Positions 5,134-47,088 of a DNA stretch of 64,000 nucleotides are shown piece after piece (position 1 is the first letter of the stretch; each line of letters opens with the position of its first letter). Source of the stretch: a virus; IMG/VR virus record IMGVR_UViG_3300025732_000024, positions 31,305-95,304 of that record. One strand, given 5' to 3'. Position numbers and translations under genes: made by a program. Below the pieces are notes generated by a model, which saw only the letters and a program-made list of their open reading frames with translations, ran no database searches and was not told the DNA's origin.

Positions 5134-5166
5134 TAATCAATGGAAGTCGCACATAGTAGCGATTTT
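5134..5166 (+). other. Protospacer for CRISPR array 1 spacer 40193-40225, in the divergent intergenic region
   Basis: TAATCAATGGAAGTCGCACATAGTAGCGATTTT is the exact reverse complement of 40193-40225; 5' flank TTAGA. Confidence 0.97.
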
Positions 5167-40155: not shown

Positions 40156-40624
40156 GTTTCGCTCCACCCCAACTCTTTCGCCCCTTAGCAAGAAAATCGC
40201 TACTATGTGCGACTTCCATTGATTAGTTTCCTCCCACCCCAATCCTTTCGCCCCTTAGCAAGCTAAATAAGCCTTTGCTAATTTAGGAGCTAGTTCCTGT
40301 TTCCTCCCACCCCAATCCTTTCGCCCCTTAGCAAGCGTTAATCAGGTCGGTTTTGGGGTTATTTTCTGTGGAGTTTCCTCCCACCCCAACTCTTTCGCCC
40401 CTTAGCAAGAATAGAATGTTATTATCTACATAGCTTATGTCTGAGTTTCCTCCCACCCCAACTCTTTCGCCCCTTAGCAAGTTTTGAGGTTATCTGTGTC
40501 GTATCAGAGTCAGATGTTTCCTCCCACCCCAACTCTTTCGCCCCTTAGCAAGCTATCAGCATCCAGGTTAATTCTTCTATCCGTTGCGTTTCCTCCCACC
40601 CCAACTCTTTCGCCCCTTAGCAAG
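40156..40624 (-). CRISPR. CRISPR array 1: 7 repeats of 37 bp, 6 spacers of 33-37 nt
   Basis: Repeat CTTGCTAAGGGGCGAAAGAGTTGGGGTGGGAGGAAAC at 40156, 40226, 40299, 40373, 40445, 40516, 40588; most divergent 3' end at the trailer repeat 40156. Confidence 0.98.
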
Positions 40625-40771
40625 TCCGTCTTTTCAAAGCCTTATGCAGCAAGGGTTCTGTGAGCGGTTTTGGCGAACCTCTTAAAAAATCTCATTTCAG
40701 CCGCTTCAATTTCTTGCGATGTGTAGCGAAGGAAGCCTGAAAATATTACAATGCCTTGGTTCTGAGGATTT

Positions 40772-40908
40772 GGCGAAAGCCTTGGGATAGAAAGCCAGCC
40801 ATAGCTCCGGCTGGTCTGTGAGGGTCATCACTTCTCCTCTTACTTTTCAGGACGAATCCCTAGAAGTCATAGGCTAACCAAAGTCAGCCACCCGCCCAAA
40901 CTGCGGTG
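40772..40908 (-). ncRNA. Putative tracrRNA 1; leader at 40625-40771
   Basis: Promoter TTGACA(40942-40937)-N17-TAACAT; anti-repeat CUUUCUAUCCCAAGGCUUUCGCC (40794-40772) pairs with repeat 1; homologous to 46278-46414. Confidence 0.8.
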
Positions 40909-41305
40909 ATTTGATGTTAGCCTACATCCTATTAATTGTCAATCAATATATCTATAGTCTTGTTGATGTTTCCGATAATTGATACAATATTCAAACCAGC
41001 ACCGCAAAGGTGGCACACGCACCACCTAAGAGGTTTTACCACTGGCAATATTTCACCCGTGAGGGCGGGCTACTTTATATGTCTAATGATACCTCAAAAC
41101 TGTTGTTGCAACAATTGATTCAGGATTTACCAGGGGTGAAGGACTTGCTGTTTCACGGTTGGTAGAGGTTTTTGTTAATTATCGAAAAGTCAATAAGACT
41201 ATTGAAGAAATGATATGATTACTGAAACCATCCCACTCAGGAATATTTGCGGTATTCCGGTGGTTTCAATGGTTAGTCCACTCTACTTAATTCCCTTAGT
41301 GAACT

Positions 41306-42067: not shown

Positions 42068-42526
42068 TTAATTTAGTCGGTCGCATCTTTGGGGCGATCG
42101 CAGCTTCGTAATTCAGTAAGAAACACAAGGAGTGATGAAAAATACATGATTTATGACTACGCTGACCTTTATGATTATTCTATGATAAACGTAGGTAGTC
42201 GGGTTAGATCAACGATTCATAAAAACATGGCTGGGATAGTTGCAAAGAAAGAAGTAATAGAAGTATCCGGCATTCCTTCTGCTACCTTTATCACGGTTCA
42301 ATGGGATAACGGTGAAATATCACATCCGTATCCGCACCAGATAGCTATTGAGCTAGTTCTAAATAAATAAACTTGTCAAATTATTATTGTTACAACTTAT
42401 CGAAAAGTCAATGAGACTATTGAAAACATGATATGATTACTGAAACCATCCCACTCAGGAATATTTACGGTATTCCGGTGGTTTCGATGGTTAGCTTTTC
42501 ACCCGGAAAGGACGGGTTACTTTGCT

Positions 42527-44378: not shown

Positions 44379-46247
44379 ATGAAAACAATCAAAATCAAGG
44401 TAAAGCTAACACCTAGTCAAATAGAATCCTGCGATAAATATTTAGAAGAATTATCCTGGTTGTGGAACTTGGTCCTAGCCAATCAACTGCACAATCACTG
44501 TATTCGCTGGTATGAATGGGCTGCTAAACTTAGTGCCGAATTAGCAAAAACCAACGAGAAGTTAGAGAAATTAAAACCAGAACAACAGCAATTAATTAAA
44601 GATTATTACAACTCCACAACCAAGCCTAAGCTAAGTAAAAAAGACCAAGAATTAGTCAACAAATTCAACATACTCTCTAGATGGAGTCCCTTCGATTTAG
44701 AAGGGATTATTCCCGTCCCTTTGCGTATTGGTAACAGTGCTTATGAAGGACTATCTTGCCAAATTGCCACAGGTGGGAGCTACTGGAAACGAGATGACAA
44801 CACCGTCATTCCCGTTAACACCAAGAAAGGCATAGCATTCATCAAAGGGTCGAAGTTAGTCAAGGGTGACAGACCCTGGCAGCGAATAGAAATAAAGTCC
44901 CATGAGTACAGGAAATTCCCCGGCGGTAAATACGAAGGACGGGAATTAATCACCTTAGAAAAATTCGATAATCTCAACGGATTAAACACACTAAGAGCAT
45001 CTCAAAACCTACCAGATTTAACCGTTTCTTCTCACTACATAGGTGGTCTATTGGGATTCTTCAAAGAATCTTGGAAAGCATTTTTGGATTCAAAAAGGAC
45101 AATCAGCAGGAAGCCTAAATTCAAAAAAGATAACGATAAAATTGCAACCTTGTCTAACAGTCAATGCCCACCAAACCGCATAGATGTTGACAAAAACATC
45201 ATAGCCATAACCGGATTCAGTGCAGTGAAAGTTGATGATAAATCCTGGGTAAAACGACTGAATTTATCCCAGTCCTTACCCCGCACCTATATGTTGACAA
45301 AGCAACAATCAGGCTACTACATAAACATTATAGTTGCTCATCCACTGCAAGAAGAGAAGTCAATATTAGCCAACAAACTACCCAAAGTCAAAAAACAATT
45401 TGGAGAAGACAGTCAAGAGTATGCAGATATTAAGTCAAAACTAAAATTCATTGAACAACAAATCAAGGAATCATCAGTCATTGAAGGCAAGGGATTAAGT
45501 GTAGGCATAGACCCAGGCGTTCAGTCAGTTGTGTCCACAGACCACGGTGCTTTATTTTTGCCAAATTTATCTAGGGAGCGTGTTTCTATCCACATAGAAG
45601 AACTCCAATCAAAACTAGATAATGCTGAATCAATCAATGATAAAAAGTGGAAAGAAGCAGGGAACAAAACACCTAGACCTAGAACCAATACCGAGATTAA
45701 ACTACAAGATAAAATCAGAAGATTGCATGAACGCGGCAGCAATTCATCCAATGCCTTTAATCACAAATTATCCACAAGATTATCGCGCACCTATGAACAT
45801 ATTGCCTGGGAAAACACCCAAATCAAAAACCTACTCAAGCAAGTAGAACCCAAATCACTACCAGAAGGTACCGGCTACGCTCACAATGGTGCATCTGCTA
45901 AACGCGGATTAAATTGGATTATGAGACAAAGATGTTTAGGTGATTTAGAAAAAAAGACAAAGCTAAAAGTTGAAAATCGCGGTGGCAGTTTTCAGCAGCC
46001 ACCAGCTAACTACACATCCCAAACTTGCCACCAATGCGGACAAAAGGGAGAACGATTATCACAGCATGAATTTATCTGTAAAAACTCCGAATGTAGACTG
46101 TTTAACGTCCCACAACAAGCAGATACCAACGCAGCCAGGAATCACAAACAGAACGCCGGATTTGAATTAGGAGAAGTCAAGTACAACGGCGTAAGATTGA
46201 CATACGAAAAACCCCAAAGATTCAAGAAAAAACGCGCTGACAGTTGA
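44379..46247 (+). CDS. TnpB-derived type V (Cas12-like) effector, 622 aa, RuvC triad intact
   Basis: MKTIKIKVKLT start; RKPKFKK; GIDPG (D378); AWEN (E478); YTSQTCHQCG...CKNSEC; ADTNAARN (D582); tracr/leader/array directly downstream. Confidence 0.88.
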   Translation: MKTIKIKVKLTPSQIESCDKYLEELSWLWNLVLANQLHNHCIRWYEWAAKLSAELAKTNEKLEKLKPEQQQLIKDYYNSTTKPKLSKKDQELVNKFNILSRWSPFDLEGIIPVPLRIGNSAYEGLSCQIATGGSYWKRDDNTVIPVNTKKGIAFIKGSKLVKGDRPWQRIEIKSHEYRKFPGGKYEGRELITLEKFDNLNGLNTLRASQNLPDLTVSSHYIGGLLGFFKESWKAFLDSKRTISRKPKFKKDNDKIATLSNSQCPPNRIDVDKNIIAITGFSAVKVDDKSWVKRLNLSQSLPRTYMLTKQQSGYYINIIVAHPLQEEKSILANKLPKVKKQFGEDSQEYADIKSKLKFIEQQIKESSVIEGKGLSVGIDPGVQSVVSTDHGALFLPNLSRERVSIHIEELQSKLDNAESINDKKWKEAGNKTPRPRTNTEIKLQDKIRRLHERGSNSSNAFNHKLSTRLSRTYEHIAWENTQIKNLLKQVEPKSLPEGTGYAHNGASAKRGLNWIMRQRCLGDLEKKTKLKVENRGGSFQQPPANYTSQTCHQCGQKGERLSQHEFICKNSECRLFNVPQQADTNAARNHKQNAGFELGEVKYNGVRLTYEKPQRFKKKRADS

Positions 46248-46277
46248 CAATTAAAACTGCTCATGCTAATATCAAAT

Positions 46278-46414
46278 CACCGCAGTTTGGGCGGGCGGCT
46301 AGTTTAATATTAGCCTATGACTTCTAGGGATTTATCCTGAAAAGTAAGGGGGAAGGTGACAACCCCCATAGACCAGCCGGAACTATGGCTGGCAGCCTTC
46401 AAAATCACTCGCGC
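46278..46414 (+). ncRNA. Putative tracrRNA 2; leader at 46415-46561
   Basis: TTGACA(46244-46249, overlapping the cas stop)-N17-TAATAT; hairpins co-vary with tracrRNA 1; anti-repeat-like CAGCCUUCAAAAUCACUCGC at 46393-46412. Confidence 0.78.
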
Positions 46415-46561
46415 AATGCCCAGAACCAAGAAAATGCAAGGGATTCAGGCAATCCTTTCGATACATAGCAAGTTGCTAAAGCGGCTGAAATGAGATTTTT
46501 CAGAAGACCCGCGCAAATGGCACTCAGAACCCTTGCTAGACAAGACTTTGAAGATGCGGCA

Positions 46562-47088
46562 CTTGCAAGAAGGGCGGAGGGATGAGAGGTGCTGAAACTA
46601 TTCTGATGGGATGAACGAGCTTATAGCCTGCGACTTGCAAGAAGGGCGGAGGGATGAGAGGTGCTGAAACTATTCTGATGGGATGAACGAGCTTATAGCC
46701 TGCGACTTGCAAGAAGGGCGGAGGGATGAGAGGTGCTGAAACAACGTTAGCGGATACATTACCCTCTAAAGGCATACAACCTTGCAAGAAGGGCGGAGGG
46801 ATGAGAGGGGTTGAAACGCGTGTGGCTGACTTTGGTTAGCCTATGACTTCTAGGGACTTGCAAGAAGGGCGGAGGATAGAAAGGACTGAAACCTCCAGAA
46901 ATTTAATAGCATTATCATTGCGGACAGCAGCTTGCAATAGGCAGAGGAAAAAGAAGGACTGAAACTAGCTTAAAGCAGCAATCAATCAACTTTACCAACC
47001 CTTGCAGCAACGCCAGACCAGGAAGGACTGAAACGCGAAACAGCAGCTTAATGATTGCCGCAATAACAAGCACAAAGAAGGCCGAAAC
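46562..47088 (+). CRISPR. CRISPR array 2: 4 near-consensus 37-bp repeats plus 4 progressively degenerate ones
   Basis: CTTGCAAGAAGGGCGGAGGGATGAGAGGTGCTGAAAC at 46562, 46634, 46706, 46781; variants at 46857, 46931, 47001, about 47054; spacers 1 and 2 identical. Confidence 0.96.

Follow-up and report, generated by a model that had tools for sequence, protein, structure and literature searches.

Two paralogous tracrRNA-array modules flank one Cas12p gene in a cyanophage genome and are candidates for separate guide channels

A single Cas12p nuclease in a type V-P phage locus is probably supplied by two live guide channels, each an independent module of promoter, tracrRNA, leader and CRISPR array. 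The window, a 64,000-nt stretch that forms the last 64 kb of the 95,304-bp IMG/VR record IMGVR_UViG_3300025732_000024 (a cyanophage), carries module 1 (tracr1 and array 1, with repeat 1) and module 2 (tracr2 and array 2, with repeat 2), which are oriented away from each other and would both serve the one nuclease. In the mechanism that we propose, a sigma-70-type promoter of its own probably drives transcription of each module, and both tracrRNAs fold, as covariation shows, into the same putative protein-binding scaffold, with a 5' GUUUG strand open to the AAAC at the end of any repeat. The anti-repeat that follows the terminal hairpin would fit its own repeat type only (CUUUCU... with ...GGGAGG-AAAC in module 1, CAGCC... 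with ...G(C/U)UG-AAAC in module 2), so that Cas12p together with host thioredoxin could load guides from both arrays via two pairing codes that do not cross-react.

The effector and the layout of the locus

From its sequence, the effector is an orthologue of Cas12p ("Cas12 hacker", type V-P), a phage-encoded, tracrRNA-dependent miniature nuclease (Wang et al., bioRxiv 10.1101/2025.01.20.633832; PDB 9jfs/9jg3; cited as Nat Microbiol 2026;11:81 in PMC13728456). A phmmer search of the PDB returned 9jfs_A, "Cas12p", with E=0 and 1131 bits, query residues 1-613 being aligned gap-free; in this alignment the RuvC triad D378/E478/D582 is intact (giDpg, iawE, qqaDt). Compared with Cas12p-1, two of the four PAM-contacting residues are kept (D197, Q262) and two are changed (N261S, K332N), and because of these changes the base preference adjoining GT may differ from that of Cas12p-1. 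The published enzyme has a GTN PAM and is activated by host thioredoxin; it uses a 185-nt tracrRNA and a 37-nt repeat, with a pseudoknot between the repeat 3' AAAC and tracr UUUG, and its structure orders the last 10 repeat nt only (bioRxiv 10.1101/2025.01.20.633832).

The ends of the record overlap, its first 128 nt recurring at the end of the 95,304-bp genome, which is classed as complete with direct terminal repeats. Across this complete circular 95-kb genome there is one Cas12/TnpB-type gene (a single tblastn and PF07282 match), the same searches found no second effector or remnant of one, and neither Cas1 nor thioredoxin is encoded. The locus is phage-borne and without adaptation genes, as is typical of type V-P, and the neighbours of cas12p are of phage type: a Mu-type portal, a head protease, Rha-like and KilA-N regulators and GIY-YIG. 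The cas12p gene lies between the tracr1 and tracr2 modules (Table 1).

Table 1. Positions in the window of the predicted parts of the Cas12p locus.
Feature	Position	Strand	Basis and remarks
tracr1 promoter, TTGACA-17-TAACAT	40914-40942	-	Promoter scan
tracrRNA 1 structured core	40795-40907	-	Covariance model, 122.1 bits; 83% identical to tracr2 core
tracr1 tail and leader	40625-40794	-	Anti-repeat 40794-40754, complementary to repeat 1 nt 1-34
CRISPR array 1	40156-40624	-	Seven 37-nt repeats ending GGAGGAAAC, six spacers
cas12p	44379-46247	+	622 aa; PDB 9jfs match; Pfam Cas12f1-like_TNB, OrfB_IS605
tracr2 promoter, TTGACA-17-TAATAT	46244-46272	+	Promoter scan; -35 box overlaps cas12p stop codon
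tracrRNA 2 structured core	46279-46392	+	Covariance model, 129.7 bits; covariation
tracr2 tail and leader	46393-46561	+	Anti-repeat start CAGCCUUC at 46393-46400
CRISPR array 2	46562-47088	+	Four 37-nt repeats (46562-46817), then three to four decayed units

The initial annotation, made from the letters alone, had called the two stretches paralogous tracrRNA genes that share a TTGACA-N17-TAAYAT element, and each part of this description holds. Reverse-complemented, 40625-40942 is 75% identical to 46244-46561 over an alignment of 313 nt (E 1.9e-52), both promoters pass a consensus scan, and the homology starts exactly at TTGACA, the 18 bases upstream being only 22% identical. The tracrRNA call is right as well, since the modules flank the gene for a Cas12p of a tracrRNA-dependent family and the AAAC:UUUG motif occurs in both: every repeat of both arrays ends GAAAC and both tracr copies carry ACCGCAGUUUGGGCGGG. 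The tracr2 core consists of the pseudoknot strand GUUUG, internal stems and the terminal hairpin CCAGCC/GGCUGG. Its tail holds a further repeat-complementary stretch (46450-46472) and a conserved block AAGCGGCUGAAAUGAGAUUUUU (~46478-46500), after which comes a leader resembling a decayed repeat-spacer; the tracr1 tail has a conserved block AAGCGGCUGAAAUGAGAUUUUUU at ~40706-40684. Decayed short remnants of array 1 extend to ~40101. In array 2, the four intact repeats end GCUGAAAC or GUUGAAAC, and spacers 1 and 2 are identical.

Several further observations concern the surroundings of these parts. The decayed units at the far end of array 2 (46857-47088; L001:5505-5724 in the sister phage L001) retain only ...GAAGGACUGAAAC and look like repeats of other Cas12p lineages; they and their spacers are conserved between the window phage and L001, and by hand they can be paired over 3+5 bp with the tracr2 anti-repeat start CAGCCUUC. 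In L001, the leader contains a full extra copy of repeat 1 (L001:736-772), with the conserved ...GAGAUUUUU block on one side and the array on the other. This leader segment of ~70 nt, missing altogether from the Cas12p contigs L035, L042, L006 and L007, is probably an old repeat-spacer unit. Two copies of a 98-nt direct repeat (41179-41276 and 42397-42494, 95% identical) sit upstream of the Rha-like and of the KilA-N gene, and the Rha cassette between them is missing in L001, which makes this a variable region flanked by the two CRISPR modules.

Shared fold and repeat-specific pairing

To assess the structure of the two RNAs, Cas12p loci were gathered from IMG/VR and GTDB genomes and ten tracr cores were aligned. 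The single-sequence folding energies of the 231/232-nt transcripts are insignificant (z -2.1 and +0.1), and covariation was therefore used as the test of structure instead. RNAalifold, which had been suggested as a check at the outset, predicts 30 pairs for the ten cores, 14 of them changed on both sides. Paired cells amount to 93.3%, vs 83% in shuffles and 27-51% with slid partners, and the covariation score is 0.40 vs 0.19 for the control, a score that none of 500 shuffles reached; over the statistics computed, 0-1 of 500 shuffles attain the observed values. The fold is supported by this covariation, and a conserved secondary structure, as expected of a tracrRNA, is seen both by RNAalifold and by pair counts in the ten orthologues. 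When the whole window was searched with all Rfam families at the gathering threshold, none matched, which places the tracr outside the curated families.

The compensatory stems listed in the initial annotation are present, namely GGCUGAC/GUUAGCC versus GGCUAGU/AUUAGCC and GAGG/CCUC versus GGGG/CCCC, together with the shared CCAGCC/GGCUGG. Over ~113-114 columns, the tracr1 and tracr2 cores differ in 19, with no predicted pair broken. Within the predicted structure, two pairs changed on both sides and two through G:U-compatible single changes; the closing pair of stem 1 (C-G vs U-A, columns 25/31) is also a two-sided change, read from the alignment and outside the RNAalifold structure. The two copies share, without any difference, the pseudoknot strand, the central UAUGACUUCUAGGGA...CCUGAAAAGUAAG region and the terminal hairpin. 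Given that no pair is broken and that these key elements are identical, a single protein can be expected to bind either scaffold. The tracr1 core differs between the window and L001 at three positions, all in loops.

In every orthologue the terminal hairpin is followed at once by the anti-repeat, whose partners are the repeat bases immediately 5' of AAAC. When this guide-proximal register is held fixed, tracr1 and repeat 1 form 13 consecutive bp, and 10 other repeat types or variants each give 1 bp with tracr1; tracr2 forms 4, 6 or 7 consecutive bp with the variants of repeat 2 and 1 bp with repeat 1. The U-rich start of the tracr1 anti-repeat accepts both GGGAGG and GGAGGG repeat variants via G:U pairs. 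The 13+8 bp pairing of tracr1 CUUUCUAUCCCAA-GG-CUUUCGCC with repeat 1 was found as first described, and the long duplex (repeat nt 1-34) has an energy of -38.4 kcal/mol (z -5.0 vs shuffled repeats), the tracr:repeat duplexes of other Cas12p orthologues ranging from z -4.6 to -10.5. For tracr2 and repeat 2 a weaker pairing had been described, and indeed the long duplex reaches only -24 to -26 kcal/mol (z -1.3 to -1.8), a level comparable with that of shuffled repeats. Anti-repeat pairing beyond chance is thus seen for tracr1, and for tracr2 in the guide-proximal 4-7 bp only. Repeat 1 is a better partner than repeat 2 for the tracr2 stretch 46450-46472 (-27.7 vs -21.1 kcal/mol), which weakens the case for full orthogonality of the two predicted tracr:repeat sets; the whole tracr2 tail gives -33.4 kcal/mol with repeat 1 vs -26.1 kcal/mol with repeat 2.

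The view that each tail diverged to match its own repeat stands in part. It is strong for module 1 (13 bp) and weak for module 2, and for the CUUUCGCC half of the tracr1 anti-repeat it has the wrong direction: this half is an ancestral block, conserved in most orthologues, so that repeat 1 fits the block and not the reverse. The start of the module 1 anti-repeat and the 3' end of its repeat are unlike those of every other family member sampled and changed together; module 1 is the derived pair.

Conservation, spacer turnover and competing explanations

The sister phage L001, whose Cas12p is 98% identical, has both modules. Between the two phages tracr2 is 98-100% conserved; they have the decayed trailer units of array 2 in common, and their leader-proximal spacers differ in both arrays, from which it follows that array 2 still acquires spacers. 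Three metagenome fragments carry array 1 with the same flanking context; L046 has the spacers of the window, and the spacer sets of L043 and L045 are different, with ten new spacers in L043, so that turnover of array 1 extends across at least four sampled populations. In three metatranscriptome studies, contigs of RNA libraries extend over tracr1/array 1 and tracr2/leader. DNA carry-over is possible, and as contigs they are uninformative on RNA ends, strand and level; they give a weak hint that both modules are expressed. In X17, contig depth is 28-49 on module 1 vs 0-8 on neighbouring genes, with nothing at 41036-41269, a gap that does not indicate silence, since every run consisted of contigs. 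The arrays of L001, L043, L045 and L046, the loop-only differences in tracr1 and the RNA-library contigs make module 1 look at least as active as module 2. With its longer array, greater spacer turnover and stronger duplex, it looks like the more active of the two channels.

These data also bear on an unlikely alternative in which module 1 alone works and module 2, though directly behind cas12p, is decaying and contributes little. Array 2 does have only 3-4 intact repeats before its decayed units, as well as a duplicated spacer, and the long duplex of tracr2 with repeat 2 does not rise above background. Array 1 has the greater length and varies more between populations, and the RNA-library contig depth is greater on module 1, a weak point. 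However, tracr2 is conserved between the phages at the level given above with an intact core (129.7 bits), and the differing leader-proximal spacers of array 2 indicate that acquisition continues. Moreover, tracr2 has kept the pseudoknot and a guide-proximal helix of 4-7 bp, the published structure orders just the last 10 repeat nt, and even the decayed units retain their 3+5 bp pairing with CAGCCUUC.

A second module appears to be restricted to this lineage. In a motif scan combined with the covariance model, each of the other Cas12p contigs (L002-L011, L035, L042 and G001-G005, the last being five whole records that are 41-66% complete) gave one tracr, so that the dual-module layout is confined to one lineage among the Cas12p contigs examined. 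Matches of the motif ACCGCAGTTTGGRCGGG in six further contigs (L027, L030, L033, L039, L040, L041) were rejected as chance matches in unrelated coding regions; with the covariance model they score at most 27.5 bits, or give nothing at E up to 1. The tracr2 sequence is closer to the L002 tracr (89% identical) than to tracr1 (83%), which means either an early split between tracr1 and tracr2 or an origin of module 1 in a lineage that was not sampled. Three of the homologues (L009, L010, L011) have a Cas12p with 63-68% identity, each with a tracr and an array, and come from contigs of Anabaena sp. WFMT, a Cuspidothrix MAG and a Nostocaceae MAG; the runs containing the window sequence are all freshwater, lake-water or algae metagenomes. 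Together these sources point to Nostocales cyanobacteria as hosts of Cas12p loci, a point left open by the Cas12p preprint.

The identity values could also fit module 1 being an orphan, left by a lost second effector or derived from a rival Cas12p phage and unused by the resident nuclease, as could the restriction of a second module to this lineage among those examined and the presence in array 2 of a spacer against the tracr1 gene. We consider this decidedly improbable. The complete genome holds no remnant of a second effector; module 1 is intact in its promoter, pseudoknot strand and all stems, and has the stronger anti-repeat of the two; its tracr1 differences are confined to loops; and array 1 spacers turn over in at least four sampled populations. 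No donor lineage for module 1 was found either, each contig with repeat 1 carrying the window phage's own flanks. Of the two options left by the initial annotation, two guide channels for one effector or an orphan module, the first fits better, given the single effector, the retention of both modules in L001, the spacer turnover of array 1 in four further contigs and guide-proximal cross-pairing limited to 1 bp in either direction.

Several spacers match the window phage or its sister. The array-1 trailer spacer (40225-40193, minus strand) is identical over 33/33 positions to an own-genome site (5134-5166, plus strand; 5' flank AGA) in the interval that separates the head protease/major head gene (minus strand) from a small transcription-regulator gene (plus strand); the spacer is kept at the trailer end in L046, occurs with one change in L043 and is absent from L045. 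Array-2 spacer 3 (46743-46780) matches C1:20702-20738 at 37/38 positions (flank TGG) in a 4,699-aa ORF (C1:14586-28685, minus strand) outside the window, and a different array-2 spacer of L001 matches the same ORF at C1:20305-20337 (30/33; flank CGC). Array-2 spacer 4 (46818-46856) matches the tracr1 gene (40857-40895) at 38/39 positions with the mismatch at spacer position 4, in the same sense as the tracr1 RNA, with TGG as the 5' flank and starting ~13 nt past the predicted tracr1 start; the site is also present in L001. This spacer has the tracr1-type and not the tracr2-type stem, and differs from tracr2 in its PAM-proximal half. Finally, an L001 array-2 spacer (L001:5398-5433) is identical to window cas12p (45403-45438, 36/36) and matches the cas12p of L001 itself at 35/36. 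Contigs with this spacer (joint 45437/46561) occur in one DNA run and one RNA-library run, both from lakes.

All four gene-matching spacers are in sense orientation. The flanks of the five matches of window-lineage spacers are AGA, TGG, TGG, TTG and CGC, none of them GTN; two partial matches of L009 spacers have the flanks GTA and GTG. Array 1 had no match in GenBank phages or in five whole related phage records, two spacers had none in an exact scan of IMG/VR, and a local BLAST of ~150 spacers against ~450 kb of related phage DNA gave only self or sibling matches and the two partial L009 matches; in the searches run, neither array yielded a natural protospacer flanked by the published GTN PAM, and no PAM of the lineage itself emerged. 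The simplest reading is that the host adaptation machinery takes up phage-derived spacers, which survive only where the phage's own copy is without a PAM.

A self-directed regulatory or kin-discrimination circuit in place of plain defence, with array 2 acting on the tracr1 gene and the array-1 trailer spacer on the promoter gap between head operon and regulator, would account for the tracr1-specific match of spacer 46818-46856, the preserved trailer spacer (40193-40225) and the uniform sense orientation, but is very unlikely: the own-genome sites have no GTN PAM, stable binding there is improbable because the PAM-reading residues D197 and Q262 are conserved, a genuine self-target would be cut and not repressed by the intact RuvC, and survivor bias, with self-derived spacers tolerated only at sites without a PAM, is simpler.

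Returning to two guide channels for one Cas12p, spacers against cas12p and tracrRNA genes are present in array 2 of L001 and of the window, respectively. A speculative and rather doubtful extension is that sibling cyanophages fight via Cas12p with CRISPR parts as targets, the recoded second tracrRNA:repeat pair being a back-up channel. If true, this back-up would keep the nuclease armed when the other guide channel is hit, a hierarchy is possible in which array 2 silences or destroys module 1 of rivals or of the phage itself, and the locus would be a naturally evolved orthogonal guide-RNA scaffold pair for a single Cas12 protein. More generally, two live channels would mean that guide loading by one small Cas12 can be divided through two co-evolved scaffold:repeat codes, and that phages diversify the RNA part of CRISPR with the protein unchanged, perhaps under attack by spacers of sibling phages. 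The codes CUUUCU:GGGAGG and CAGCC:G(C/U)UG suggest a route to two non-crosstalking guide sets for a 622-aa nuclease.

Comparison with known systems

The window locus resembles the Cas12p systems of Wang et al. in being phage-borne, in an effector that is collinear over 613 aa with an intact RuvC triad, in a tracrRNA gene directly 3' of the nuclease gene, and in 37-nt repeats that end AAAC and pair with tracr UUUG. In the preprint text, a system has a single tracrRNA and a single repeat, and second arrays, natural spacer targets, hosts and a natural two-channel guide layout are not mentioned (bioRxiv 10.1101/2025.01.20.633832). In contrast, the window has two tracr and array modules with different repeat families, and its Cas12p differs from Cas12p-1 in two of the four PAM-contacting residues (N261S, K332N).

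Type V-K CAST systems reportedly share a long structured tracrRNA, a bipartite repeat:anti-repeat, a GTN PAM and cyanobacterial hosts. Cas12k is said to use atypical, delocalised crRNAs as well, degenerate units that keep the guide-proximal part remaining usable, with one tracrRNA serving typical and atypical crRNAs alike; it is also said to be nuclease-dead and transposon-linked. The window differs from these systems in that its two tracrRNA genes accompany a nuclease with intact RuvC, and Tn7 genes are absent from the neighbourhood.

More than one tracr-type RNA per effector is also found in type II, where a long tracrRNA form is reported to repress the cas9 promoter (bioRxiv 10.1101/2020.05.21.102756), and where "second tracrRNAs" have been predicted (bioRxiv 10.1101/2020.09.02.279885); in our search of the literature on two or second tracrRNAs, only these predictions in Cas9 loci were found. 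A self-matching guide can have a regulatory effect there. The type II cases differ in having one repeat family, one array and an effector of the Cas9 class, and no co-evolved, mutually non-complementary pair of tracr:repeat sets is known from them. Set against these systems, the nuclease family is already published as V-P, and the new part is the predicted two-channel tracrRNA layout.
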